Translations under genes and position numbers: made by a program
In this document: positions 2,611 through 30,956 of the stretch, piece by piece
Layout of the letters: each line of letters starts with the position of its first letter
Numbering within the stretch: the first letter of the stretch is position 1
NCBI GenBank assembly: GCA_019894885.1
Contig: JAGXNP010000002.1
Span: forward strand, 1-59,554
Reading direction: 5' to 3'
DNA from: Promethearchaeota archaeon
GTDB lineage: Archaea; Asgardarchaeota; Lokiarchaeia; Sigyniarchaeales; SOKP01
Length of the DNA: 59,554 nt
The notes under the pieces: model-generated
What the model saw: only the letters and a program-made list of their open reading frames with translations
Database searches by the model: none
What the model was told of the DNA's origin: nothing

Positions 2611-3546
2611 TTATATTTCTAAATTAATTGTAAACTTTGCTATTTCTTTTTTTTTTTCTTTTGAGACCATTAAGGTATCAAAACAATAAGTGTTTATATC
2701 CATTTCCTTAATAATCGGCTTTAATGCACAATCTTTATTATCAATGATGAAATGGCTTATTATATCTCTATAATAATGCGCCACTCCAACACAAGAAACT
2801 TCGAGTCCCAGATGTTTCATCATTTTATCTGCTGGACCTTTTACTGTTGCCCCTTCTATAATTGGGCTTATAGCAATTACTTTTTGTTTGATGTTTTTTA
2901 AGGTTTTCCTAATTCCTGGAATCGTAAGTATAGTACCAATGGAGACTACAGGGTTCGAAGGACAAATTAGAACTCTCTCAGCATGCTTTATGTAATCGAG
3001 TACCCCCTTAACTGGTTTTGCTTTATCAATGCCTTGGAACTTAATGTCTAATATTCTTGGTCTACAATTATATCTAATGAAAAATTCTTCAAAATGCATT
3101 TCTTCTGAATCGGTTGTAATTATTGTTTGAACACTCTCATTAGTCATTGGTATAAGATGAGAAGTTATCCCCATTTTTTCAGCTATTTTCATAGTGATTT
3201 CTGCTTTACTAAATCCCTTCTTAAAAAGATCAGTTCTATATATGTGTGTCGCTAAGTCTTTGTCTCCTAAATTGAACCACTTAAAATCATAAAATTGTTT
3301 TAAAGATTTTAAACAATTAAAAGATTCGTCTTGAAAACCCCATCCTCTTTCTTTATCTACGATTCCCGCTAAAGTGTAAGTTATTATATCAATATCAGGG
3401 CAGATTTGTAAACCGTATAATTCTATATCGTCACCTGTATTTATAATGATCTTTAATAAAGCGGGATCAATTACATTAGCCAAACCTTCTATAAATTTAG
3501 CCGCTCCTACTCCACCTGCAAGTACTAAATAATAATTATCATCCAT
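2611..3546 (-). CDS. cofD: 2-phospho-L-lactate (or EPPG) transferase CofD, F420 biosynthesis
   Basis: 311 aa. N-terminal LAGGVGAAKF nucleotide-binding motif and overall CofD/YvcK-family pattern. Lies next to cofE. Confidence 0.85.
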   Translation of the reverse strand: MDDNYYLVLAGGVGAAKFIEGLANVIDPALLKIIINTGDDIELYGLQICPDIDIITYTLAGIVDKERGWGFQDESFNCLKSLKQFYDFKWFNLGDKDLATHIYRTDLFKKGFSKAEITMKIAEKMGITSHLIPMTNESVQTIITTDSEEMHFEEFFIRYNCRPRILDIKFQGIDKAKPVKGVLDYIKHAERVLICPSNPVVSIGTILTIPGIRKTLKNIKQKVIAISPIIEGATVKGPADKMMKHLGLEVSCVGVAHYYRDIISHFIIDNKDCALKPIIKEMDINTYCFDTLMVSKEKKKEIAKFTINLEI

Positions 3547-3556
3547 ATTTTAACGC

Positions 3557-4972
3557 TCATTCTTCTTTACTTATCCTAAAGATAATATCTTTCAATTCCT
3601 TACGATAAGGTTTTTGAGTTGTTTTAGTCGAATAACCTACTGTAAAAAATGCCATAGGTACGAAAGAACTTGGCAGTTTCAGTACTTCCTTGAGAATTTT
3701 TTTTGCAAAAAAAGGTGCGCAATACCAGCACGCAGATAATCCTTTATTTTCAAATGCAAGAAGTAAATAGGTTGCTGAGGCGCTTACACTCTGCACTCCC
3801 ATAATATATTCATTAAATTCTCGTGTTTTATCTGAATAGGTCTCTAAATCGTGTGTATCCATGCATAGGAGTATTAAATAAGGTGAATTGAGAAATTGAT
3901 TTCTTGTTTTATTTATTTTCTTAAAAACATAATTATCTGATTTGCCTTCAGATATCAAATCTTCTTTCAATTTAGAATTCATCTTCTTAATCAAAGTTTC
4001 ACGAATCTTTCCCTTTTCAATTATAATATATCGCCAGAATTGACCATTGTGAGCACTTGGAGCCCATCGAGCTATATCTATACAGTCTTCTATCAGTTTA
4101 ATACTTATTTCTTTATCACCAAACTCTGATTTATAACTTCTCCGAGATTTAAGAATGGTTTCAAAATTCCCAGTTATATGTTTCTCTCTAAATAAATCTA
4201 TCTCGCTTTTTCTTAAAATTTGGTTTATAGAAGATTTTTCCATTATTGAATATTTATATCCCCTGATTATAACAACTGGTAGACCTTCATCCGCTTCTCC
4301 CATGACTAATTGAGCAGCAGAAGCTAAACTGTCAATATGTCCGATGATTGTACTCTGTAATTCTTTCCCATATAAATCCTTACTACCTCGCTTGTCCAAT
4401 ATTGGAGATATTCCCGAAACACCTAGGGCTACTCCTACTGCCCCCAATCTAAACGATCTTCCAAACGAGTCTGAAATTAATACAGCAATTTTTTTTTTTG
4501 TCAAATTTTGAAGTGAAATCCGGATTTTTTCGGCTTCTTTGTCTGAATCTAAAGGGAGCAAAGAAATTATATCCCCTTTTCCGACATTAGATTTATCAAT
4601 ACCTGCATTTGCACATATAAAACCGTGGTTCGTTTCAACAATCATTACATGCTCTGCTTTTAAAACTTGTCTCGATTCATCTAATATTGCTTGAATTAGC
4701 TTAGGACTTTTATCAGGCAAATTATTTTTTCTTATCAATGGAGCCATTATATCGTAGAGATCGAAAGCCTCCTGACTTGGAACGATATCTTCTATATTTC
4801 TTAGTCTTCCAAGACTTTTTGATATTATAGTTTGGGCGATAATCACAATGTCTCCATCTTCTAATGAGATACTGTTTTTTGTTAAAGCATTAAAAATTGT
4901 TGATGGAATATTGTCGCCGGTTTTTATTAGGGGGATATCTTCTACCCCGATAATTTCTATTTTTCCGCTCAT
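3557..4972 (-). CDS. cofE: F420-0:gamma-glutamyl ligase fused to a C-terminal nitroreductase-like domain (FbiB-type architecture)
   Basis: N-terminal ~250 aa is CofE-like (IIAQTIISK..., NAGID.SN, LLP.D.D). The C-terminal half carries the nitroreductase signature ARWAPSAHNGQFWRY. 10 nt upstream of cofD. Confidence 0.8.
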   Translation of the reverse strand: MSGKIEIIGVEDIPLIKTGDNIPSTIFNALTKNSISLEDGDIVIIAQTIISKSLGRLRNIEDIVPSQEAFDLYDIMAPLIRKNNLPDKSPKLIQAILDESRQVLKAEHVMIVETNHGFICANAGIDKSNVGKGDIISLLPLDSDKEAEKIRISLQNLTKKKIAVLISDSFGRSFRLGAVGVALGVSGISPILDKRGSKDLYGKELQSTIIGHIDSLASAAQLVMGEADEGLPVVIIRGYKYSIMEKSSINQILRKSEIDLFREKHITGNFETILKSRRSYKSEFGDKEISIKLIEDCIDIARWAPSAHNGQFWRYIIIEKGKIRETLIKKMNSKLKEDLISEGKSDNYVFKKINKTRNQFLNSPYLILLCMDTHDLETYSDKTREFNEYIMGVQSVSASATYLLLAFENKGLSACWYCAPFFAKKILKEVLKLPSSFVPMAFFTVGYSTKTTQKPYRKELKDIIFRISKEE

Positions 4973-13955: not shown

Positions 13956-14558
13956 TTATGAAGTGAATGAATGCTTTTTTTTAATTGCTTTCAATTCAGT
14001 AATTAACCAACATAATTCTTCGTATGTAGAAGAAGAATTTAAGATTTCTTGAGTTTTTTTCTCTATATCCTTCTTTGAAGTGATTTTTGGATACTTTAAT
14101 AAATTAAGCTGCAATTGGGCTAATATACTACATAATTCTTTATACGGTTTTTTTTCTTGAGAAAGCTTATGTGCTGCAATTGTGATTTCTCCCTCTAAAT
14201 CGGGATCTATTCCTGCTTCAATAAGCTCTACAGTCTCTTCATATTGTATCTCTAATTCTGGTCTTCTTTCTAAATTCTGCCTAGGTTTTATTCCTTTTTT
14301 TATAGAATTTTTTATAGCTAAGAATGAACCATATTCTTTATTTTGTTTTACTATTTGAATACTAATGGGTATCTCCTTTTTGTTGTTCAATAATTTTGCT
14401 TTATTAATCGACAACTCTTTTCTTTTCTTAGATATACTTGAACCTAACCACAAAAACAATGATTTTGCGTCATCTATTAAATACACTTCATCTTCTTTAA
14501 AATCTGCTTTACTAATTTTCTTAAGACCTCCTCTTACACCGACATTATATACTATCAT
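13956..14558 (-). CDS. Gelsolin/villin-type single-domain protein with helical C-terminal extension
   Basis: Residues ~15-85 (FKEDEVYLIDDAKSLFLWLGSSISKKRKELSINKAKLL...ISIQIVKQNKEYGSFLAIK) follow the gelsolin-repeat consensus (compare gelsolin G1: FFTGDAYVIL...YWLGNECSQDE...VQHREVQGFESATFLGYF). ATG start. Confidence 0.65.
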   Translation of the reverse strand: MIVYNVGVRGGLKKISKADFKEDEVYLIDDAKSLFLWLGSSISKKRKELSINKAKLLNNKKEIPISIQIVKQNKEYGSFLAIKNSIKKGIKPRQNLERRPELEIQYEETVELIEAGIDPDLEGEITIAAHKLSQEKKPYKELCSILAQLQLNLLKYPKITSKKDIEKKTQEILNSSSTYEELCWLITELKAIKKKHSFTS

Positions 14559-14636: not shown

Positions 14637-15293
14637 TTATATTTTTAAGGATTTTTCAGTTAAAATTTCTACTCTTATGTTAGAGTCTTTTTTTACCATA
14701 ATTTCTTTGAAGATATTTAAATCTTTTTCCCAATTATGCATTGGTACTACTATTTCAGGTTGAATATCCACAGCAGCATTAGATGCTTCTTCAAAATCCA
14801 TAGTATATGTCCCTCCGCAAGGTAATAAAGCTACAGTAATATTTCGGGTCTTTAACTCTTTCATTTCAGGGATTCGTTCAGTATCACCGGCATGATAAAC
14901 ACTTTTACCAGCTGATTCTATTATTGTTCCCGTCCAATTATTGCTTTTTGGATGCGTTATTTTCTCGATTGTATACGCAGGAAACAATTCGATTGAAAAA
15001 TCTTTATACGCAAACTCTTCACCGATTTCCAAGCCTTGACCACCAAATTTCTTTAAACTGTTTGCAATGCTAATAGGACCTAACAAAACTGTATCGTCTT
15101 GCCAAATTTTTTTTATATCTGATTTCGAAAAATGATCACCATGTGTGTGTGAAGACACTATGATATCCGCTTTTTCTTCTCCATCTTTAATATTATAAGG
15201 ATCTAGATATATAACCCTTCCACTAAACATCTTGATTTTAAAGCATGCGTGACCCAACCAAATAATTTCCATTTGAGTGTCTATATTTGTCAC
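14637..15293 (-). CDS. Metallo-beta-lactamase-fold hydrolase (UPF0173-like)
   Basis: 218 aa. N-terminal IIWLGHACFKI, HTHGDH metal motif, family-typical length. Confidence 0.8.
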   Translation of the reverse strand: MTNIDTQMEIIWLGHACFKIKMFSGRVIYLDPYNIKDGEEKADIIVSSHTHGDHFSKSDIKKIWQDDTVLLGPISIANSLKKFGGQGLEIGEEFAYKDFSIELFPAYTIEKITHPKSNNWTGTIIESAGKSVYHAGDTERIPEMKELKTRNITVALLPCGGTYTMDFEEASNAAVDIQPEIVVPMHNWEKDLNIFKEIMVKKDSNIRVEILTEKSLKI

Positions 15294-15462
15294 CTCAATA
15301 TTTTATCATAAAATTTTATTTATTATGTCTATAAATGATTTATTAAATTATAATTCTTGCTTGAAAAACATACTTATCATATATGATTCCAATTGAAAAT
15401 ATTAATATTGATGCTTATTTTTCATTTATTATTCAACTACATTTACCTAGAGTGCGTGAAGA

Positions 15463-15963
15463 ATGAATTTAACAAGAGATGATTTGATACAATCAGATGC
15501 TACAATGAATCAAATGCGTAATATGATTTATCATTTAGAGAGATTTATGAAACTCAATGGAGTGTCCGAAATAAGAGATAAATTAAGGAGAATGGGGCGA
15601 AATATTGCCCGAACTTATATAAAATATTGGAAACCAATTGATATTGTTAATAAAGCTAATTTAAATGATGTGATAACCACAATCTATAAAAAGATCTTAA
15701 ATAGCTCGGTTTCAGTGGATTTTGATGAAACAAATAAGATCGTCATGGTTAAAGATAATGACTGCTCTTTATGTAAATATCATTTTAACGATATCGATGT
15801 TGCGGGATGTGAAATTATTGCAGCAATGCTATCAGAAATTATAAATTGTATTAATAAAGAAAAATCTTCATTAATACTAGAACCACTTGATATTCTTGAA
15901 TCTCAAACATTTGGACACAAATCATGTATTCAAAGCTTTAAATACAAAGAGGGAGGTGTTTAA
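15463..15963 (+). CDS. V4R-domain protein (TRAPP Bet3-like fold)
   Basis: 166 aa. Pattern MGRNIARTY...VMVKDNDCSLCKY...VAGCEIIAAMLSEI...GHKSCIQSF matches the V4R Cys/Gly pattern. Confidence 0.6.
   Translation: MNLTRDDLIQSDATMNQMRNMIYHLERFMKLNGVSEIRDKLRRMGRNIARTYIKYWKPIDIVNKANLNDVITTIYKKILNSSVSVDFDETNKIVMVKDNDCSLCKYHFNDIDVAGCEIIAAMLSEIINCINKEKSSLILEPLDILESQTFGHKSCIQSFKYKEGGV
15952..15958 (+). promoter_or_regulatory. Shine-Dalgarno-like GGAGGTG, 7 nt upstream of ATG 15966
   Basis: Complementary to the conserved archaeal 16S 3' end. Lies inside the last codons of the upstream V4R gene, implying operonic coupling. Confidence 0.6.
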
Positions 15964-15965
15964 TA

Positions 15966-17441
15966 ATGGGAGCAGTTCAATGGTTATTAAAAAAGATCAC
16001 TAAAGTATTCGGTAGAAACACTACTTCTTTATATTATGTTCTTCTTTATCGTGAAATATTAAAAGAGATAAATGATATTACGAAAGATGAAGAGGATAGT
16101 ATTATTATACTTAGAGAGATCGGGAAGAAAGCTGCTACAGAATCATGTGAACGTCACACCACTGTTTTTAAATGGATGCCTGGGAGCCCAAGAAAAGTAA
16201 TTGAATATTTTGAACTTTTATGGGTTGTTGTTTTTGGAAAGGAATTAGAAGAGGGGGATTTAACTTACGAGGAACTTCCTAAAGAAAGCTCGAAATATAA
16301 CGATTATATTGTTAAGATAAAAAGTTGTCCACTTTGTGCAGGGTATGGGGCAGATGATGAGGATACTTTCAAATTTCAAAAAGTAACCAATAAAAATAGT
16401 GAAGGTCTTGCGTGCGGTTTAACGGGAATGTTAGAAAGTGTTGCTAATTTTATACTTAAAATAAAAAGGAGCGATTATAGAATTAATATTGTAGAGCAGA
16501 AGTGCTTAGCGAAAGGTGATGAGCATCTTCAGTTTATGTGTAAAATCTATGATTCTCTAGACTGGAAAGAGCTAAGTTCCGTTCGAATTCAAGATAAAAT
16601 TAAATCTGGAGTTAAATTTGAAGAGTCTATAGAAGAGGATGTTGTTCAAGAAACAAAGTTAGACATTATTGATAAACTTCAAGAAGTCTTATCTCTTGAT
16701 AAAATTGAGGAATTACTTGATGAACCCTTAGAGGGTATTAAGAGTAAAGTTGCTGAGATCATTGAAGATAAATTAAACATGGAACCCGAACACTTTTTCG
16801 ATTATTTTAGAAATTATGAGGACGATCTATTAAGAATCATTGGCTATCTCGCAGTTCACCTGCTTAATGAATATGGAGGATTAATCGAAAAAACTTTGAA
16901 AAATAGCACATTTGCTAAAATAGCAGGGTACCTTTTTAAACAATTAAGAGAATTTGTTTTATTGTTCATCCCTATTGATGTAATCAACGATTATCATCAA
17001 TTACTAATAAGTTTTCTTGATGGTTTAGCTCCAGCAGAGATGGTCGAGAATGTAAGACAATTCTCGGGTAAGGATGATATTAATTTTCTCTTTGAAGGAG
17101 CCCAAATGGCACTTGAAAATTTAGGAATTGACTTTTCAGAGCTAAAAGATAATGTTTGGGAAGAAATAAGAAAGGAAAGAGAAAACGGTTTACTTTCTTC
17201 GGATCAGTCAATGATGGAAAAAACTGAAGAAAACATCCCAAAAATTATAAAGATTATGCAAGAAATTTTAATGTTGTTAAGCGATATTTTAACGCTTCCA
17301 ATAAGAGTATTAATTTCTGAAAGCCATTATGGCCTTAAAACAGCTATTAACTCTGTAGTATCTGAAGAAGAAGGGTTGTTCGGGAGTATAAAAGATAGAA
17401 TTGATACAATTTTTGACTATGTTCAAGAATTAAAGCAATAA
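15966..17441 (+). CDS. V4R-domain protein (TRAPP Bet3-like) with ~300-aa acidic helical C-terminal extension
   Basis: N-terminal ~200 aa carry VKIKSCPLCAGYG...LACGLTGMLESVANFIL...EQKCLAKGDEHLQFMCKI, a classic V4R signature. The remainder is helical, Glu/Asp/Lys-rich and of no recognised family. Confidence 0.6.
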   Translation: MGAVQWLLKKITKVFGRNTTSLYYVLLYREILKEINDITKDEEDSIIILREIGKKAATESCERHTTVFKWMPGSPRKVIEYFELLWVVVFGKELEEGDLTYEELPKESSKYNDYIVKIKSCPLCAGYGADDEDTFKFQKVTNKNSEGLACGLTGMLESVANFILKIKRSDYRINIVEQKCLAKGDEHLQFMCKIYDSLDWKELSSVRIQDKIKSGVKFEESIEEDVVQETKLDIIDKLQEVLSLDKIEELLDEPLEGIKSKVAEIIEDKLNMEPEHFFDYFRNYEDDLLRIIGYLAVHLLNEYGGLIEKTLKNSTFAKIAGYLFKQLREFVLLFIPIDVINDYHQLLISFLDGLAPAEMVENVRQFSGKDDINFLFEGAQMALENLGIDFSELKDNVWEEIRKERENGLLSSDQSMMEKTEENIPKIIKIMQEILMLLSDILTLPIRVLISESHYGLKTAINSVVSEEEGLFGSIKDRIDTIFDYVQELKQ

Positions 17442-17464
17442 TAAAAAAAAGAGAAATTTTAAAA

Positions 17465-17472
17465 TTTTTTTT
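17465..17472 (+). terminator. T8 tract after the V4R operon; an A8 tract at 17443-17450 serves the convergent gene
   Basis: aataAAAAAAAAgagaaattttaaaaTTTTTTTTatg between convergent genes gives an oligo-T on each strand. Confidence 0.35.
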
Positions 17473-18169
17473 ATGTTTTTAATCCTAAATACATCCAGAT
17501 TGCAAAAGTCATCATTACTACTCTTACAAAACCAATAGCAACAGGTAAAGTGAGTATTGAATCTAAAGCTCCACAGACAACAAAAATTATAAATCCTAAC
17601 GCTAAATAAATAAATTTCTTTCTCAATTCTCCAGTTGCCTGCTTGGCTTTTATTAAAAACCCAAAACCTAGAAAAATTAGAGCTGAAAGGAGAAATAAAG
17701 CAACTAGTAGAAAGGTTGGATGTGTTCTAACAAAACTAGCGTCAATTAAGCCCTCACCGGGATTAATAAGTGTCCATGTGAAGGAATCGTTTGTATAGAA
17801 CCATAGAAAGTATTCAAATATAATACCTAATATAATAAATGTTCCAACTAAGATCCATTTTTTTTTAGGTATTAAAAGTTCACCACCAAGATACATTGAA
17901 ACAATTAATACCGGAGCTACCCACATATAACTTAACAACGAATAAAAGTAGATTGGTGTTATGTTGGTTCCTGTAAATGTTACTAAAATTAAATCTATAA
18001 ATGGACCAAGCCATAGAAAGCCAGTAAAAAGCATAGTCAATGCAGCGAATGTTAAGAGTTTTGCTTTTAATTTTATTGATTTATATAGAGATAACAATGC
18101 AAAAATTGTAGCTGATAAAATAATACCTGTAGCAGTTAAGCCATCTAATAATCCTAATGCGTCAACCAT
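17471..18169 (-). CDS. Integral membrane protein (about 7 TM), unknown function
   Basis: 232-aa ORF composed almost entirely of hydrophobic helices. No motif recognised. Confidence 0.55.
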   Translation of the reverse strand: MVDALGLLDGLTATGIILSATIFALLSLYKSIKLKAKLLTFAALTMLFTGFLWLGPFIDLILVTFTGTNITPIYFYSLLSYMWVAPVLIVSMYLGGELLIPKKKWILVGTFIILGIIFEYFLWFYTNDSFTWTLINPGEGLIDASFVRTHPTFLLVALFLLSALIFLGFGFLIKAKQATGELRKKFIYLALGFIIFVVCGALDSILTLPVAIGFVRVVMMTFAIWMYLGLKT

Positions 18170-21503: not shown

Positions 21504-21875
21504 CTAATCTAAAAGTGAAGCAATCCTATTGGAAACGCTCTGGATATTTAGAAAAACCATACCTAAACTAGAATTAGCGCTACAAAGCGTACATAAAATA
21601 GCGTTATCACCTGCTTTAGAGAGAACAATAATTCCATTTAGACCTTCGATAAGGATTCTTTTTAACTCACCCCTATCAAGTTCTTCAACCGCTCGCTCTG
21701 ACACGCTCTGTATAGCTGCTGACATCGCAGAAACTATACCATCATTCACATTACGGCTTAAAACGGAACAAATTGGAAGTCCTTGAACACTAACTATAGC
21801 GGAACCCTCTATATCACTATTTACTGCTGATAATTTTCTTAGTAAATCCGTGAGTTCGCTAATATTCTCAGACAA
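21504..21875 (-). CDS. Roadblock/LC7 (MglB-like) domain protein
   Basis: 123 aa. Typical pattern ...IEGSAIVSVQGLPICS...SAMSAAIQSVSERAVEEL..G.LKRILIEG.NG.IVLSKAG.NAIL. Only a TTG start is available in frame. Confidence 0.75.
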   Translation of the reverse strand: MSENISELTDLLRKLSAVNSDIEGSAIVSVQGLPICSVLSRNVNDGIVSAMSAAIQSVSERAVEELDRGELKRILIEGLNGIIVLSKAGDNAILCTLCSANSSLGMVFLNIQSVSNRIASLLD

Positions 21876-23113: not shown

Positions 23114-24223
23114 ATGAAAAAACTAAATATCTGCCTTATTTCTTTAACTGTATCTCCAGATAGTGTGGATGGCGAAGCAAAAGTCATCAGAGCACTTTTT
23201 GAGTATTTAAAAAAACAGGGACATAGCGTTAAATTAATCACTGGTAAATGGAATAAAGACTTAGGCACTCCAGACATTATTCAATTCGATTTAATCAGAA
23301 AAAGGTTTCTATGGGTGCTTCATTTTTATATTAAAGTCATTAGATACTTAAGAAGAAATAGATTCGATATTGTGCATGCAAATAGCGCAAAGGCTGCCTT
23401 ACCAGTGTTTTTATCCCATCAGAAAAAATTTATTTGTACAATTCACGATTTTACTCCTTTTGAAACACAACTTACAAAAATTCCATTGGAAAAACTTTTG
23501 ATTAAATTTGTTTCAAGGAGAGCCTCTTCGATATTAACTGTATCTAATTTTGTTAAGCAAGAATTCCAGCATTTTCTTCCCAATATTGACAAGAATAAAA
23601 TTAAAACGATTTACAACGGTATTGATGAAAAATACAAACCATATCCTAATGAAGCTCAAAAGTTAAAGGAAAAACTAAATATTCATGGTCCAGTTTTATT
23701 ATATGTTGGGAGAATAACACAATATAAGGGTGTGAAAAGTATAATCGAAGCTTATAGGCTAGTTAAAAGCGAAAATCCTGATATTAAGTTAGTTATTGGT
23801 GGAAAGCCTGATTTTTTAATGAAAAATGAATACAATAATTGGGTTGCTGATTATAAAGATGTTCGTTTTTTAGGTTTTATCCCCGAAAATGATATTCCAT
23901 TCTATTTTTCTATGGGAGACATTTTTATCACATATTCATCTTCATCTGAAGGATTTGGATTAACCTCTTTGGAAGCAATTTCTTGTGGAACTCCTGTTAT
24001 TTGTTCAGCAATTTCGGTATTTAAAGAAATATTAGAGGACCACGCGCTCTTTGTTCCACCTAGAAATCCCCTTAAATTAGCAGAGAAAATTAATATCCTA
24101 CTGCACGATGATGAACTAAAAAATCAATTAGTTATTAATGCTCAAAAATATATCCAAAAATATAGTTGGAATGCTGTAGGCAAAAGATTAGAAAAGGAAT
24201 ACGAAAAATTTATGAACCTCTAA
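23114..24223 (+). CDS. Glycosyltransferase family 4 (GT-B fold)
   Basis: 369 aa. C-terminal EGFGLTSLEAISCGTPVI (E-x7-E region) typical of GT4. Confidence 0.85.
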   Translation: MKKLNICLISLTVSPDSVDGEAKVIRALFEYLKKQGHSVKLITGKWNKDLGTPDIIQFDLIRKRFLWVLHFYIKVIRYLRRNRFDIVHANSAKAALPVFLSHQKKFICTIHDFTPFETQLTKIPLEKLLIKFVSRRASSILTVSNFVKQEFQHFLPNIDKNKIKTIYNGIDEKYKPYPNEAQKLKEKLNIHGPVLLYVGRITQYKGVKSIIEAYRLVKSENPDIKLVIGGKPDFLMKNEYNNWVADYKDVRFLGFIPENDIPFYFSMGDIFITYSSSSEGFGLTSLEAISCGTPVICSAISVFKEILEDHALFVPPRNPLKLAEKINILLHDDELKNQLVINAQKYIQKYSWNAVGKRLEKEYEKFMNL

Positions 24224-25329
24224 GAGCCCTCCAAGAGGTTCTTCTTAACAGTTTTATAACAGATATCATTTGGATTCTCAAAATTCAATATTTTTTCTCG
24301 AAAGTTATTGTTAAACCTATCAGATTTCGGTTTAGTTGAGAGGATTCCCAAAGATTTTTTTACGATTTCGCCAATCCCTTTTATATGTTGTAAAGGGAAG
24401 CCATTGTTTATTAAAAAACGCTCTTGGGGTGCTGTTTCTCCTGGAAAAAATTCTATACTTGGTACATTTAATAGACTTGATTCACGTACTATTGTTCCAC
24501 CGCCACTGATTACTAAACTGCTGTAAAAACACAGATCAACCATATTCGGCATGTATCTTGTTATTTTTACATTGGAATATCTTTTGTAATTCTCCAATTT
24601 CTCGTTAAGAAATAATTCTTGCTTTTTAGTTCTTACAATGATCAGATATTTATGATGTGGAAATTCTTTAAAGATAGGAGGAAAAAACTTGCTAATTAAT
24701 GATTCTTCTGGTTTAAGAATATCAATAAAATAGCTTGCAAATGAGGGTTCACTTCGTATAACTACATACTCTCCCTTCTTTAAATTATATTCATCAAGTA
24801 TGGAAGGATTTGGTTGATACTCCGATAACCAAGCTATCTCGTCTATACCATTAAATCTTATCAATTTATTTGGATTTGCGTGGAGGTCTATGTACAGTTG
24901 CTCGGGAACACAAGTAGGAGTAATTATATTATCTAAATAGGGAAATATTAATTTACATACTGGAACATTACGAGGTTCATCGTTATAACCTATCGAAGGG
25001 ATATTCAAACCATACGAGATTCTTGTACCTTCAACAGATGAAAATGTAATGAAATAATCTGGCTTAAAATTTACTACTTTAGGGTATAATTCCGTCAAAC
25101 GGTTGATATATGATGATAATTTATTTTCTAAAGTAGCGCCCCCATGCTTCCCTACTTTCTCATAAATTACTTCTAAATCGTCTAGAATTTGAAAGGTTGA
25201 GTCATAATCTCTTGCGGTAACAAGGATATCAGCTCCATCATTTCTAAATTTTTCTATAAGAGATTTAAACATTATACTTGTTTTTGGTTCTTCAATATCA
25301 ATCCAAATTTTCTTTCCTGATAAACTCAT
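24220..25329 (-). CDS. DUF354-family protein (GT-B/epimerase-like, glycan biosynthesis context)
   Basis: 369 aa. N-terminal KIWIDIEEPKTSIMFKSLI...GADILVTARDYD matches my memory of DUF354. Converges on the GT4 gene with a 4-nt overlap. Confidence 0.65.
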   Translation of the reverse strand: MSLSGKKIWIDIEEPKTSIMFKSLIEKFRNDGADILVTARDYDSTFQILDDLEVIYEKVGKHGGATLENKLSSYINRLTELYPKVVNFKPDYFITFSSVEGTRISYGLNIPSIGYNDEPRNVPVCKLIFPYLDNIITPTCVPEQLYIDLHANPNKLIRFNGIDEIAWLSEYQPNPSILDEYNLKKGEYVVIRSEPSFASYFIDILKPEESLISKFFPPIFKEFPHHKYLIIVRTKKQELFLNEKLENYKRYSNVKITRYMPNMVDLCFYSSLVISGGGTIVRESSLLNVPSIEFFPGETAPQERFLINNGFPLQHIKGIGEIVKKSLGILSTKPKSDRFNNNFREKILNFENPNDICYKTVKKNLLEGS

Positions 25330-25389
25330 GATTAAATTAATTCTTTCAGTTGTTATTTTAAAATTTGAAAAAGTAGCATATATTGTGAT

Positions 25390-26145
25390 TTAAATCCAAT
25401 CTGCAGGTTTTTTTTTTAATAACTTAGCAGGGTTTCCGACAACTATATCTCTTTCATTAGTATTTTTTGTAACTACAGCGCCTGCTCCAACAATTGTTCC
25501 CCTTTTTAAAGTAATTCCCGGTAAAATAACTGAGTTTGCACCGAGTGATACTTCGTCTTCAATTGTTGGACCAATTAAATCAAAATCCTTCTGCATCATG
25601 TATTTATCATTCGTTAATTTACTGAAAGGACCCATAAATACGTTATTTCCAATTCTACAATATAACGGAATATATACTCCCGTTTGGATACTAACTTTAT
25701 TACCTATTACTACATTACCGTCAATAACCGTGTTAGTACCTATAACTGTATTATGCCCTATTGATGTTTTTTCTCTTATCATAACATTATGTCCTGTTTG
25801 ACAATTGCTCCCAATTAAGACTTCAGAGTAAATTATACTACCTGCCCTTATGGTACAATCTGTTCCAATAGAAACTAATGGACTCTCGTAATCCGTTCCA
25901 TTCCTCTGACTCTTTACAACTTCTAATAATTCCGCTCGTTGGCGGTGCCCAATAATACAATTTTCCCCTATATAAGTCCCCGATTGAATTAAAGCGTTTC
26001 CGTAAATATTAACACCCTTAGAAATATAAACTCCGCTTTCAATTGTAACTCCTTTTCCTATTGTTGAAAATGTATCAATAAATGCATTTTTATGCACGAT
26101 AGCATTCTTATGAATAAAAGAATTATTTGTATCTTCTAGTTTCAC
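25390..26145 (-). CDS. Left-handed beta-helix (hexapeptide-repeat) acyl/acetyltransferase
   Basis: 251 aa of repeated [LIV]-G-x4 hexapeptides (IGKGVTIESGVYISKGVNIYGNALIQSGTYIGENCIIG...). Confidence 0.8.
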   Translation of the reverse strand: MKLEDTNNSFIHKNAIVHKNAFIDTFSTIGKGVTIESGVYISKGVNIYGNALIQSGTYIGENCIIGHRQRAELLEVVKSQRNGTDYESPLVSIGTDCTIRAGSIIYSEVLIGSNCQTGHNVMIREKTSIGHNTVIGTNTVIDGNVVIGNKVSIQTGVYIPLYCRIGNNVFMGPFSKLTNDKYMMQKDFDLIGPTIEDEVSLGANSVILPGITLKRGTIVGAGAVVTKNTNERDIVVGNPAKLLKKKPADWI

Positions 26146-26207
26146 TTCTACGGATTCACTTTCTTTCGATTTTTAGTTAAAATATATTGTAAAAAATATT
26201 AATTTAA

Positions 26208-26501
26208 TCATTTTACACAATTACAAGGAGAGGAATTACACTTTTTACACTTATTGGGGTATTTACTAACTATAGCTTTTTCTATATCAATATCTAAGAC
26301 ATTTGCGATAGAAATTGTCCAAGCTATTATATCTGCTAATTCTTCAGAAATCTTTGTTTTATCTAATTCTTGGGTGTTTAATAAAGTAGCAAGCTCACCA
26401 ATTTCTTCAATAAGCCAGATGTATGTGCTGTTAATCCCTCGATTTAGGTCTTTGTGAAGGTAGAGCTTTTTGAGTAACGCCTGAAATTCTGATATACGCA
26501 T
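26208..26501 (-). CDS. MazG-like nucleotide pyrophosphohydrolase (small, single domain)
   Basis: 97 aa. EEIGELA...EELADIIAW metal-binding EExxE/ExxD pattern. Cys-rich tail CKKCNSSPCNC. Confidence 0.65.
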   Translation of the reverse strand: MRISEFQALLKKLYLHKDLNRGINSTYIWLIEEIGELATLLNTQELDKTKISEELADIIAWTISIANVLDIDIEKAIVSKYPNKCKKCNSSPCNCVK

Positions 26502-26543
26502 GTTTAAATGTAATCATATTCATAAAAAATGTTATAAATAAAG

Positions 26544-26759
26544 TTACGAGGGGGTAAACAACCAATTAAAAATACCTAACCAAGCAAAAATGACTATCAA
26601 TATTAAAGCAACAGCAAAAATTACAGTTGTTATCGGGCTAATTTTAATTCCAATTGAACTATCCTCAAAAAACCTCATTAAACCAGCGCCTCCTAAAGGC
26701 ATTGGTGCGTTTCCGCTTCTCCTTTTTTTGCGTTTTGATTGGCTGCGTTGAGACGACAT
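26544..26759 (-). CDS. Protein translocase subunit Sec61beta (archaeal SecG)
   Basis: 71 aa. Basic N-terminus, conserved GGAGLMRFFED motif, then a single C-terminal TM (tail-anchor layout). Confidence 0.75.
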   Translation of the reverse strand: MSSQRSQSKRKKRRSGNAPMPLGGAGLMRFFEDSSIGIKISPITTVIFAVALILIVIFAWLGIFNWLFTPS

Positions 26760-26911
26760 TTATAATTTTCTCAATTATTTTTATAATATAAATAAATTTA
26801 AAACAACACAAATAATAAGTTTTATCTCGAATCATATAAATAAATTTAATAAATTTTTATTAATGGTATTAATTATTGTTAGTTAATTCGAGTTTACAAA
26901 GGAATTTAATT

Positions 26912-28774
26912 ATGAGAAGAAAAAGTTTTTTCATTATATTTATTGGATTTTTATCTTTTATAATCGTATTCTCAGCTATTCAAGATGATTTTTCATATAA
27001 TTATCAACATGATTTATTAGTTGAAGACCCTCAACAATCAAGGACTTTAGAAGGAGCAGATAACCTTTTAGTGGTGAATATGGTAAGAACCACTAATTTA
27101 AGTTCCTATGGTTTAGTAAATATAAAAGATAGGCTAACAATCTTAAATAATAATAACAATCCGATTAATTCAATTTTATTTGGATTAAAGGTTGAACATT
27201 CAAATGATTTAATTTATTTTAACGCTTTTGGTGAAGCAAAGAACACACTTTTAATCGAAAGATCCCACGAAATAATGGACATTTACGAAATGATAACTAT
27301 TTATTTTGATATGCCTTTACTACCATCGCAAAAAATTACTTTTACTGTTTTGCATTCATATACGAATTTAATATCTTATCAGTTTGCTTTTATTGAAGAA
27401 GATATCACTCAACTTTTAGTATTTAAAGGATCATTGTTTCCTCTTTTACCCTATAAGAGCGAAGGAAACATTAAATCAAATTATCTGTTACCAGAAGGGT
27501 CAACGTTATATTCTCATACACAAATTGGGCCAATGGGAGTTCCGTTGGAGGGAACTAATGTATTATACGATTTAGAAGCAAATTTAGAAATTAACTATTT
27601 AGAGCCCTTTTTACTAAACTTAGATGAGAATAACGAAACAACTATTTCTGTAGACGATAGGTTATCATCAAAATTAGAAATAGAAAAGATAAACAAGGAT
27701 ATTTACATATCTCCCTGGGGTATTATTAAAAATATTGAAGAAATTACGATTGAAAATGCTGGAATTGTTGAAGTTGCTCTATTATCAATGAAAATTCCAA
27801 TCGATGCAATAAATGTAAAAGTTTATGACGATCTGGGAGAGGTCTTAGGAGTATCCCTTATAGATTCTATTGATGATGTTTCAACAAAAATTGTTTCTAT
27901 TCAATTATACCAGAATAGAGTTTCGCTGACACCGGCATCAAAATTTAAGTTTTTTCTAGAATATTATCTACCCCCTGAAAAATATATATCCTACAATTGG
28001 CTACAACAATCCATTTCAATAAACTTACTTACGACAAAATATGAATATTTAATATACGAACAAACTACCAATGTATTTATCGAAGGTTGTGCTAGTGTTG
28101 ACTATATGTCTTCACTACCAGAAGCTTTGCATAACTCAGGAAATTCCAAAGTTTTAGTATACAGCACAGAAAACATAAGTCCAATAGTAAAGAAAAATGT
28201 ACTCCTTACTTTTACTATTGATTTATTTGAAATATTTCTTAGACCTGTTGTGTTCGTTATGATCATTGCCTTATTGTCATCTATTTTCGTTCTAGCAATT
28301 AAAACTCTAAAAAGAGAGGAACAAGTATCGATCTTCAAAAAAGAATTCATCCCAACAAGTGAAATTAGAGAATTTTGTTCATTGTACGAAGAGAGCAATG
28401 CATTAGTGTTAGAAATTAGAAAAGCAGAAAGTGAGACAAAACGCAAGAAATTAGCAAAAAAGACTTATAAAAATTTATTAAGCAAAAACACGTCAAAAAT
28501 TGACCAGATTAAAGAAGAAATAAACCCTTTTAAGAAAATATTGATGGAGACTAACGATACATTCAATAATATTGTAAAAAGACTTGATGTGTTAGATGCC
28601 GAAAGAATTAGTATTTCGGATAGCTTAAATCTCTTGGAGACTCGATATAAAAGAGGAAAATTACCTTCTAAAGCAGCCTACCAAAAATTATCAATTGATT
28701 TCTTCAATAGACGAAAAAAATTAGATAGAACGATCGATAAGTATATTCAACAGCTAAGAAGTTATTTATTGTAA
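26912..28774 (+). CDS. Ribophorin I (OST1)-like protein
   Basis: ATG at 26912 is preferred to the TTG at 26876. Signal anchor, ~430-aa lumenal-type domain, one TM ([18 protein letters not shown]), ~150-aa charged coiled tail, the same layout as RPN1/Ost1. Local matches to human RPN1: [22 protein letters not shown] vs [23 protein letters not shown], and [12 protein letters not shown] vs VSHWGNIAVEE. Confidence 0.65.
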   Translation: [620 protein letters not shown]

Positions 28775-28797
28775 ATGACAAAAATTTCGGTGAATAA

Positions 28798-29421
28798 ATG
28801 AGACCGTGGTTGTGCGACATTTTAGCTTGTCCGATTGATAAATTTTTTCCTCTAGAGTTGATAATCTTTTCTTTTGAAACAAACGAAAATATTTTTAAAG
28901 AAATATTAGAAGCGTATGATAAGAAAGACTTAATTAGTATTAAAAAGGAAAATGTTATTGAAATTGAGCAAAAAAATGAAGAATTACTTCTGAAAGACGA
29001 AATCGTGATTGAAAAAAGTAAACTTGGTATTTATATAAATAAAATAATTTCTAGTGTTAAAGAAGTAGATAGTATACGCGATAAATCTTCATTTGAGCTA
29101 AGTAAACGATGTATTCACATTATACAAAATGATATAAAACAAAAAATAAAAGCATTCTCAAACAATGTGATAAATAAACAAATTGATACTATTTTGCCAG
29201 AATTATATTTATTAAACAAATTCAAAACTGAAATTGAAATTGAAACGGGTATATTGTTCTGTTCTCAGTGTAAGAGATGGTTCCCAATCATCGAAACTAT
29301 TCCGCAGATGTTACCAGATGAATATAGAGATGAAGAAGCAGATATTCTATTTCTGAAAACCAATAAAAATTTATTAGATAACACATTTTTTAAACAAAAT
29401 TTAAAACCATTTAATCTATAA
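28798..29421 (+). CDS. Trm112-like methyltransferase-activator protein with large inserted domain
   Basis: N-terminal WLCDILACPIDKFFPLEL and C-terminal ILFCSQCKRWFPIIETIPQMLPDE form the split Trm112 zinc-knuckle/beta signature. A ~120-aa helical insert lies between them. GGTGA SD upstream. Confidence 0.55.
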   Translation: MRPWLCDILACPIDKFFPLELIIFSFETNENIFKEILEAYDKKDLISIKKENVIEIEQKNEELLLKDEIVIEKSKLGIYINKIISSVKEVDSIRDKSSFELSKRCIHIIQNDIKQKIKAFSNNVINKQIDTILPELYLLNKFKTEIEIETGILFCSQCKRWFPIIETIPQMLPDEYRDEEADILFLKTNKNLLDNTFFKQNLKPFNL

Positions 29422-29435
29422 AAAATAATTGTTAA

Positions 29436-29537
29436 AGCCCGGTGGTGTAGTGGCCAAGCATCTGGGGCCTTGAACCCCGTGACCACGGTTCGAAATTTAT
29501 CGAGTCATCTCGATAATCGAAACTCCGTGCCGGGCTA
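29436..29537 (+). tRNA. tRNA-Gln (anticodon UUG) with 29-nt intron at T-loop position 59/60
   Basis: Hand-folded. Acceptor AGCCCGG/CCGGGCT (A1:U72), U8, A14, G18G19, D-stem GUGU/GCAU, anticodon stem UGGGG/CCCCG, loop CCUUGAA, T-stem CACGG/CCGUG, discriminator A. Intron 29495-29523 is framed by a canonical hBHBh' motif. The spliced T-loop is UUCGAAU. No encoded CCA. Confidence 0.85.
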
Positions 29538-29609
29538 ATTATACCTTTATTTAAAAAGATTTATTTGATTACGAGAACAAAAAATTAATCCAAAACTAAA
29601 TGATTTAAT

Positions 29610-30956
29610 ATGATTCGGCTATCCTCTATGAATTGGGGTATTTTAGAAACAATTTACCTAGTTATATCTTTCATTGTTGGATTTGTTATAACATTAGTAA
29701 TTATCCCTTATATCATAAGAATCATGAAACGGAAAGGATATACAGGGATAGATATACATAAGACATTAAAAACTGAAGTTCCCGAATCTGGTGGGATTTC
29801 TATTATCATTGGTATATCAATTACTGCTATTTTACTGACTATATTTTTCCCAGATTTCTTTAATGAAATCTTGATTTTTGTTTTAACAGTAGTAATTTCT
29901 GGTTTTATTGGTTATATAGATGACAGAATCAAATTAAGATCAAGATACAAGCTGTTGTTAACAATTTTAACAGGAATAGTGATATTTTTAGCAAACTCTG
30001 TTGGTTTTATACAAATCGAATCTCCTACAATTCCCTTTTTGGGAAAATTAAGATTAAATGTTTTATATCCAATTCTCGTTCCTTTGATCGTTGCTGTTTT
30101 TGCTAATACAGTCAATATGTTAGAAGGATACAATGGTGAAGGCTCAGGGACATCGATTATTGCTTTATTTTCCTTGATGATTTGCTCTATTATATGGGAC
30201 TCCGCAGAAGGTTTATTATTTACAGTTATATCTTTAGCAATATTAATACCATTTTTCTTATATAACAAGTTTCCAGCTAAAATTTTTCCAGGGGATGTTG
30301 GAACACTAAGTATTGGAGCAATTTTTGCTTCTATCGCTCTGATTGGTTCTCTTGAATCAGCAGTTTTTTGTGCATTACTTATTCATATATTTAATAGCTT
30401 TTATGTCATTTATTCTGTAAAGGGGTTTTTCGAAAGTAGTGAAATTTCAGACAATAGAAGCGACATTTTATTATTAGAAAACGATTTTATAAAGGCTTCA
30501 GATCTAAAAAGCGCTGCTTTGACATTACCTCGGTTAATATTAGCTAAAGGACCAATGAAAGAACCAGATTTAGTCAAAAACTTCTACATAATTACGATAA
30601 TTTGTGGATTTTTTGCTATTTTAACCACGCTATTGATGGTTTCAACAACAACTCTTATCACAATAGCGATAATATGTGGTTTTTTTGGATTAATTACGGT
30701 AATTTTGTTGTATAAGTATCCTAGAATAAGGGGGATAGTAGTTCTCATGTTAATTTTAATCTTAGTAGGGTATTTATATCTTGTTGCTATTGATTTATTT
30801 ATCATCCCCATAGATTTTATAGATATTAATATTTTTGGTTTAGTAATACCTACTAATATTCTAATATCCTTAATTATAGTAATACCTGGACTTTTACTGT
30901 GGTATTATATCACTATTAAATACTTTTGGTCTGAAATTAATAAAATGAAGAAATAA
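29610..30956 (+). CDS. UDP-GlcNAc:dolichyl-phosphate GlcNAc-1-phosphate transferase (ALG7/AglH, MraY-WecA superfamily) with extra C-terminal TM region
   Basis: 448 aa, polytopic. GYIDDRIKL, NTVNMLEGYNGEGSG and FPGDVGTLSIGA motifs of polyprenyl-P sugar-1-P transferases. The last ~130 aa add extra TM helices. Confidence 0.75.
   Translation: MIRLSSMNWGILETIYLVISFIVGFVITLVIIPYIIRIMKRKGYTGIDIHKTLKTEVPESGGISIIIGISITAILLTIFFPDFFNEILIFVLTVVISGFIGYIDDRIKLRSRYKLLLTILTGIVIFLANSVGFIQIESPTIPFLGKLRLNVLYPILVPLIVAVFANTVNMLEGYNGEGSGTSIIALFSLMICSIIWDSAEGLLFTVISLAILIPFFLYNKFPAKIFPGDVGTLSIGAIFASIALIGSLESAVFCALLIHIFNSFYVIYSVKGFFESSEISDNRSDILLLENDFIKASDLKSAALTLPRLILAKGPMKEPDLVKNFYIITIICGFFAILTTLLMVSTTTLITIAIICGFFGLITVILLYKYPRIRGIVVLMLILILVGYLYLVAIDLFIIPIDFIDINIFGLVIPTNILISLIIVIPGLLLWYYITIKYFWSEINKMKK

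Follow-up and report, generated by a model that had tools for sequence, protein, structure and literature searches.

The window analysed here, a stretch of 59,554 nucleotides (nt) with 30.3% G+C (positions 1 to 59,554 of contig JAGXNP010000002.1, assembly GCA_019894885.1, Promethearchaeota archaeon, Lokiarchaeia), contains in single copy each two adjacent genes, open reading frame 1 (ORF1) and ORF2 (Table 1), and we consider it moderately probable that their products are two subunits of one complex of paralogous TRAPPC3/Bet3-fold domains, which belong to the V4R superfamily. Only 2 nt (TA) separate the TAA of ORF1 from the ATG of ORF2, and a strong GGAGGTG Shine-Dalgarno (SD) sequence for ORF2 lies inside ORF1; both features had been described in an earlier note on this DNA and were confirmed at 15952-15966. 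The conserved C-terminal residues of ORF1, E-G-G-V (15949-15960), share bases with the core of this signal (GGAGG), and because the same bases form the SD of ORF2, conservation of the Gly-Gly end of ORF1 may serve the RNA signal and not the protein.

The arrangement was found throughout the family. An ORF1 homologue (E 1e-69 to 1e-92) was present immediately upstream of ORF2 and on the same strand in 83/83 fetched loci, the gap between the two genes being 2 nt in 60 of them and -1 to +17 nt in the rest except for one computed as -22, and 75/77 non-redundant loci had an SD-like purine pentamer no more than 20 nt from the start of ORF2. These coupling signals, together with the co-conservation of the genes, agree with the co-translated pair that the earlier note had proposed. 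Moreover, the further diverged loci had the ORF1 homologue directly upstream in 9/9 cases, which brings the total to 92/92. ORF1 was 33-35% identical to the window protein in five aligned diverged loci (L084-L088), the same adjacency was present at L089, and ORF1 still preceded the ORF2 variants made up of just the N-terminal domain (L090, L092). Two ORF1/ORF2 pairs were located at separate places in GCA_054681365.1 (L084 and L091), so in this genome the module has been duplicated as a unit; two ORF2-type genes were observed in other genomes too (ACTSU5_ locus tags of P0251 and P0302). At L090 (5001-10573), ORF1 and the N-domain-only ORF2 are followed by three genes on the same strand, whose products are a charged protein of 123 aa, a STAND-like NTPase of 622 aa that includes a SNAP/TPR region, and a protein of >1000 aa with apolipoprotein-like helical repeats.

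The exhaustive HMMER search with the ORF2 profile covered 1.84 billion cluster representatives and returned just 61 at E<=1e-3, and the ORF2 family is therefore narrow. When one genome per GTDB species was scanned for related loci with the Loki alignment, 114 genomes encoded a relative and 80 loci were kept; nearly all of these bear the label Promethearchaeota, Promethearchaeia or 'uncultured archaeon', a few bear other Asgard names, and one is evidently mislabelled. The homologues all came from Asgard archaea labelled Promethearchaeota, Lokiarchaeota or Promethearchaeia, a few labels of metagenome-assembled genomes (MAGs) being inconsistent, and the named diverged members were Lokiarchaeota-type MAGs and Helarchaeota; the pair is confined to Lokiarchaeia and their relatives. 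One contig labelled 'Candidatus Nanopelagicaceae bacterium' (L005, DATKTW010000073.1) has the pair too, with proteins 96% identical to those of the window, and evidently comes from an Asgard archaeon and was mis-binned or mislabelled. Copies 70-91% identical were also present in MAGs of one study labelled Hermod-, Hod-, Odin- or Thorarchaeota, and because of this identity those labels are doubtful too.

ORF1 appears to be a small TRAPPC3/Bet3-like protein of the V4R superfamily, a fold suggested by its profile match to 7yh2. The profile of close ORF1 homologues matched the crystal structures of Thorarchaeota TRAPPC3 (Thor-TRAPPC3) in the PDB at E=2.8e-5, and after five diverged partners had been added the matches were 7yh2_A (E=9.6e-9) and 7yh3_A (E=1.3e-7) over residues 23-134, with the CxxC and the third Cys aligned. 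C101, C104, C116 and C155 were unchanged across 19 diverse homologues, and the NQxRN motif at residues 16-20 was invariant. Pfam and NCBIfam scans of the ORF1 and ORF2 sequences gave nothing above threshold; the ORF1 family consensus scored 14.3 bits (E=0.035, sub-threshold) against PF04051 TRAPP. Weak matches of ORF1 to SecA_SW and others were discounted as helical noise.

ORF2 is a protein of several parts, with 68-94% identity over the full length in >100 cluster representatives. Its residues 20-204 (ORF2-N) were modelled by AlphaFold2 (AF2) with block-mean predicted local distance difference test scores (pLDDT) mostly of 75-91 and one block at 68, and the model has two long helices, short helices, two strands, a Cys-bearing loop, a helix and two strands. 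In Foldseek searches against the PDB, Thor-TRAPPC3 ranked first (E=1.6e-4), followed by mouse, human, Naegleria, fly and yeast Bet3/TRAPPC3 with target-normalised template modelling scores (TM) of 0.65-0.79; the matches to 7yh3, 2j3w_D, 1wc8, 1sz7 and 6aq3 had prob 1.00 and E 1.6e-4 to 1e-3, and Bet3 2j3w_D gave the TM of 0.79. Lower down were MopR, PoxR, DmpR and H-NOX (E 3e-3 to 1e-2, TM 0.44-0.51); the sensory domains of PoxR, MopR and DmpR bind phenols. The predicted model thus superposes on solved structures of the Bet3 family, whose fold has two alpha/beta layers with two long N-terminal helices, a 4-stranded sheet and additional helices, and this suggests that ORF2-N has the Bet3-family fold. 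The sequence profile of ORF2-N reached 7yh2 in the PDB with only E=0.45, which is not significant, and the fold assignment therefore rests on AF2 and Foldseek; the consensus was sub-threshold for both PF04051 (15.6 bits, E=0.013) and PF02830 (14.2 bits, E=0.047).

The two families could also be aligned with each other. With alignments of low diversity, hhalign of the ORF1 family against ORF2 gave no match; after diverged homologues had been added, the ORF1 and ORF2-N profiles matched over 121 columns (prob 83%, E=8.6e-6), and in this alignment the CxxC and the third Cys of one family fell on those of the other. From the hhalign and fold matches we therefore conclude that ORF1 and ORF2 are distant paralogues of the TRAPPC3/V4R fold. 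The Cys motifs quoted in the earlier note are all present in the two proteins, and its placing of both in the V4R/TRAPP-Bet3 fold class was supported by the ORF1 profile, by Foldseek for ORF2-N and by hhalign between the families; the closest matches were Asgard TRAPPC3 and eukaryotic Bet3 and not the bacterial V4R sensors that the note had considered as another outcome.

Both proteins carry, at the level of sequence, the CxxC...C...C arrangement that would be expected of V4R domains, and both probably bind zinc through these four Cys (Cys4); ORF2 has further Cys at C61 and C192. Among 33 diverse ORF2 homologues, all four Cys were present in 23, none in 9 and three of the four in 1, and since the four are kept or lost together the pattern fits one Cys4 metal site. 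The full-length ORF2 homologues without all four Cys were P0252, P0253, P0254, P0257, P0259, P0260, P0265, P0279 and P0287, and in the single case examined (L089) the ORF1 partner of a Cys-less ORF2 retained its own four Cys.

The N-terminal residues 1-19 of ORF2 include 4 basic and 0 acidic ones, their hydrophobic moment is 0.56, and they are the best-conserved segment of the protein (column entropy 0.38), conserved in diverged homologues too. AF2 predicts a helix here, although with low pLDDT.

The C-terminal ~260 aa of ORF2 (C-domain) had been described in the earlier note as a long acidic helical extension of no recognisable family. The acidic and helical character was borne out (isoelectric point 4.4-4.9), and so was the lack of a family, as neither Pfam (none of 29 members, nor their consensus) nor Foldseek of the model against the PDB (best E=1.6) gave a match; the description as a tail was not, since this part is a conserved, confidently folded domain behind a short linker. 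With a diverse 29-sequence alignment, AF2 predicted an all-helical C-domain of mean pLDDT 80, and the core at ~257-392 had pLDDT 88-97. Conservation is alike in the two halves of the protein (mean column entropy over 119 homologues 0.62 for the C-terminal part vs 0.71 for the N-domain), and a 'disordered acidic tail' was ruled out by the core pLDDT together with this high conservation. The domain has the invariant residues E285, G293, H298, N301 and G378 and the motif NYEDDxxRIxGxLxVHxLNExG. Four invariant or near-invariant residues, E285, H298, N301 and E302, are on one helix (16818-16871), with H298, N301 and E302 sharing one face, and these four could form a metal site or a partner-binding site.

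Within the C-terminal helices, the segment 427-452 reached a Kyte-Doolittle 19-residue maximum of 1.66 in the window protein and up to 2.15 in homologues, and the hydropathy maximum was at the equivalent position in 16/18 homologues. A true transmembrane protein is unsupported, the hydropathy of the window protein being just borderline. To judge from sequence, residues 1-19 and 427-452 would suit a peripheral or monotopic association with membranes and, equally well, protein-protein packing.

The C-domain is a separable module. It is missing from the ~190-aa N-domain-only homologues, and two representatives, including one from Helarchaeota, carry it joined to a HAD_2 hydrolase. At the Helarchaeota locus L092 (5001-6608, 9168-10282) the C-domain–HAD_2 fusion is 2.5 kb from a pair of ORF1 and N-domain-only ORF2, a domain fission that links the function of the C-domain to the pair and leaves ORF1 and ORF2-N as the invariant core.

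Table 1. Features of the ORF1-ORF2 pair and of its surroundings, in positions of the window
Feature	Position	Strand	Remarks
ORF1	15463-15963	+	166 aa; stop TAA 15961-15963
ORF1 Cys4	C101 15763-15765, C104 15772-15774, C116 15808-15810, C155 15925-15927	+	
Shine-Dalgarno-like GGAGGTG for ORF2	15952-15958	+	7 nt before ATG; in ORF1 codons Gly164-Gly165-Val166
ORF2	15966-17441	+	491 aa, multi-part; ATG at 15966
ORF2 residues 1-19, basic amphipathic N-terminal helix MGAVQWLLKKITKVFGRNT	15966-16022	+	predicted
ORF2 residues 20-204, TRAPPC3/Bet3-like domain	16023-16577	+	by AF2 with Foldseek, and hhalign
ORF2 Cys4	C121 16326-16328, C124 16335-16337, C150 16413-16415, C180 16503-16505	+	
ORF2 residues 205-232, variable acidic linker	16578-16661	+	entropy 1.51 (highest); pLDDT <50; length varies among homologues
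ORF2 residues 233-392, core of conserved all-helical C-terminal domain	16662-17141	+	by AF2
ORF2 residues 393-491, C-terminal helices of same domain	17142-17438	+	pLDDT 53-78
ORF2 residues 427-452, conserved hydrophobic helix-Pro-helix segment (P445)	17244-17321	+	by hydropathy
AT-rich divergent intergenic region	15294-15462		between ORF1 and oppositely oriented metallo-beta-lactamase (MBL)-fold gene 14637-15293
A8/T8-containing short spacer	17442-17475		ORF2 stop to convergent membrane-protein gene 17471-18169 (-)
Gelsolin-repeat protein	13956-14558	-	200 aa; Pfam E=2.8e-6; one repeat, then ~110-aa helical extension
Roadblock/LC7-domain protein	21504-21875	-	E=3e-15; 4 kb downstream of pair
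Ribophorin I-domain protein	26876-28774	+	632 aa; E=1.3e-14; eukaryotic-signature protein like those of the oligosaccharyltransferase complex
F420 biosynthesis: CofD; CofE fused to nitroreductase domain	2611-4972	-	

In the complex that we favour, ORF1 would be the small subunit, its beta-sheet probably tied to a helix by the Cys4 zinc site as in Thorarchaeota TRAPPC3, and ORF2 would be a diverged copy of the domain with the basic amphipathic helix before it and the variable acidic linker and helical domain of ~260 aa behind it. With a gap of only 2 nt and the ribosome-binding site placed within ORF1, translation would be coupled, so that both chains are made together. The core of eukaryotic TRAPP has Bet3 paired with its own paralogues, with Trs33/TRAPPC6 and with Trs31/TRAPPC5, via alpha1 and alpha2, and ORF1 and ORF2-N may pair via their N-terminal helices in the same way. 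We infer such an ORF1:ORF2 heterodimer because of the obligate adjacency, the paralogy and the ORF1 plus ORF2-N core that persists where the C-domain is absent or has moved elsewhere. The additional segments of ORF2 might then place the dimer on a membrane or a partner protein, and the Bet3-like core would be likely to bind a hydrophobic ligand or lipid or to act as a platform, catalysis being unlikely. Bet3-family paralogues are described as functioning as homo- or heterodimers (PMC2253512), and the two N-terminal helices are the dimer interface of Thor-TRAPPC3 (PMC10933270).

Several observations weigh against this reading. Thor-TRAPPC3 crystallises as a homodimer, the TRAPPC3-like proteins of Loki strain MK-D1 (where one TRAPPC3-like and one PoxR-like protein were modelled, all as homodimers) and of Heimdall were modelled by AF2 as homodimers, and green fluorescent protein fusions of Asgard TRAPPC3 had a diffuse distribution when expressed in HeLa cells (Tran et al. 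2024, PMC10933270). In addition, ORF1 and ORF2 are below the Pfam gathering thresholds for both TRAPP (PF04051, 27 bits) and V4R (PF02830, 31 bits), no longin or small-GTPase domain was found by Pfam in 30 other ORFs of the window (~236-39,426), and the hydrophobic segment of ORF2 could simply be a buried core helix.

Among the other explanations, a sensor of the V4R type survives best, although we regard it as unlikely: the domains would bind a hydrophobic metabolite, with the C-domain of ORF2 as output and ORF1 as co-sensor or modulator, and there would be no role in membrane traffic. The Cys4 motif resembles that of PoxR and Tran et al. favour ligand binding as the likely role of Asgard TRAPPC3/V4R proteins (PMC10933270), V4R domains are believed to take up hydrophobic ligands and to pass on a signal either in cis or in trans (PMC2253512), Foldseek also returned the MopR, PoxR, DmpR and H-NOX structures given above, and JGI, the source of two ORF1 homologues, names them 'predicted hydrocarbon binding protein'. 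However, the TM values were clearly higher to Bet3 and Thor-TRAPPC3 than to PoxR and MopR, the C-domain is unlike known output domains (no HTH, AAA+, kinase or cyclase), one ORF2 subfamily is without the whole Cys4 site, and the pair is located among housekeeping genes in conserved synteny with no adjoining catabolic operon. Bacterial V4R proteins (PoxR, MopR, DmpR; PF02830/COG1719) are like the pair in superfamily fold, in a Cys-based zinc site and in the expected cavity for a hydrophobic ligand; they differ in that the pair has no AAA+ or HTH output domains.

Quite unlikely, in our judgement, is that ORF1 and ORF2 are separate homodimers and that the operon reflects common regulation after a tandem duplication. 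The homodimeric crystal and models cited above would suit this explanation, and tandem duplicates frequently remain adjacent; yet order, adjacency and tight spacing were held in all 92 loci, down to ~33-35% ORF1 identity, and the arrangement survived duplication of the whole pair. Moreover, the two paralogues have diverged strongly and unequally, since Cys4 is always present in ORF1 but sometimes lacking in ORF2, and such asymmetric divergence combined with adjacency argues against independent homodimers because it is typical of obligate hetero-oligomers derived from paralogues.

A link to GTPases was the last explanation weighed, and we consider it very unlikely: the core of the C-domain would be a remote homologue of BART/ARL2BP that binds an Asgard Arf/Arl-like GTPase, and the pair would be a TRAPP-like effector or regulator complex. 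ARL2BP (BART; 3DOE, 2K9A, 2K0S; PF11527) was the top PDB match of the C-domain profiles, with E=0.07 for the Loki profile and E=0.0042 for the more diverse one, and it was matched in the same register by the Loki-only and the diverged-only sub-profiles. Real BART sequences scored 13-21.6 bits, whereas the maximum of 3000 composition-matched shuffles was 10.9, and the match, over ~65-100 residues, spans the best-conserved motif of both families (LNEYG..EK vs FNEYI..EK); both domains are all-helical. On the other side, Foldseek of the confident C-domain model returned no ARL2BP chain at E<=10, the C-domain consensus had no match to Pfam PF11527 at E<=10 (a human fragment matches at 6e-34), hhalign of the C-domain to two BART sequences gave a prob of just 24%, and the window has no GTPase gene, nor any P-loop GTPase candidate. 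The BART similarity is thus a low-probability, uncorroborated lead. An Arf-family small GTPase gene (L084, 2545-3234, +) was observed two genes upstream of one diverged pair; it is a single locus and may be coincidence. The fullest form of this idea, in which Lokiarchaeia have a Bet3-type paralogue heterodimer with a membrane-anchoring helical domain whose BART-like core binds Arf/Arl GTPases, is a still longer shot; if true, Asgard Arf-like GTPases, whose native regulators and effectors are still unidentified (PMC11914678), would have in this pair their first candidate for one, and the pair would be a direct forerunner of GTPase-coupled tethering complexes.

The genes flanking the pair are housekeeping or unrelated and comprise those for gelsolin-domain, MBL-fold and thioredoxin proteins, an HdrC-like ferredoxin, TIM, LeuRS, a membrane protein, penicillin amidase and roadblock. 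Related genomes keep broad synteny, which reflects genome collinearity and not a functional cluster, and the neighbourhood was therefore rejected as a guide to function. The intergenic region upstream of ORF1 is presumed to hold the promoter of a two-gene unit, and the spacer behind ORF2 is a possible oligo-T terminator region. The gelsolin-repeat gene, two genes upstream of the pair, encodes an Asgard eukaryotic-signature protein. A roadblock gene was observed 1.5-5.5 kb downstream of the pair in 3/3 related loci (L001-L003), the intervening genes being different in L001, and the gene for the Ribophorin I-domain protein sits among glycosyltransferase genes (23114-30956).

The system closest to the pair is Thor-TRAPPC3 (7YH2, 7YH3), where zinc binding via four Cys has been shown experimentally and which is closer to TRAPPC3/C6 than to PoxR (Tran et al. 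2024, PMC10933270). It shares with the pair the Asgard origin and the fold, reached by sequence profile for ORF1 and by structure for ORF2-N, its length (159 aa, against 166 aa for ORF1), and the Zn(Cys4) site, to which the CxxC...C...C of the pair corresponds. It differs as a single homodimerising product, whereas here two very diverged paralogues are encoded in a translationally coupled operon, ORF2 adds the amphipathic helix and the helical C-domain, and some ORF2 lineages are without Cys4. To the eukaryotic Bet3/TRAPPC3 heterodimers (2C0J, 2CFH, 2J3W) the likeness lies in the ORF2-N fold and in two paralogous subunits of one fold, a pairing that is here inferred only. Some ORF2 lineages have lost the zinc site, for which there is a parallel in mouse TRAPPC3, where a hydrogen bond takes its place (PMC10933270). 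In contrast to eukaryotic TRAPP, both window proteins stay below the Pfam TRAPP threshold, the core subunits of TRAPP have nothing that corresponds to the C-domain, and nothing here points to longin partners, Rab guanine nucleotide exchange factor activity or palmitoylation.

To our knowledge, Asgard TRAPPC3-like proteins have so far been described only as single, homodimerising and probably ligand-binding proteins, and our literature search found no paper on an operonic paralogue pair, on the long ORF2 protein or on its C-domain. Asgard TRAPPC3-like proteins as such are thus already known, and what is new here is the operonic pair of diverged paralogues and the C-domain of ORF2. The latter is a conserved, confidently folded Asgard domain without known relative, which makes it a target for work on structure and partners. 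The features that point to heteromeric specialisation are that the paralogues are diverged, locked in an operon, translationally coupled and Lokiarchaeia-wide, with possible membrane elements and a new domain. If the pair is heteromeric, it would show duplication of the fold and heteromeric specialisation in archaeal relatives of eukaryotes, whether by common descent or by convergence.

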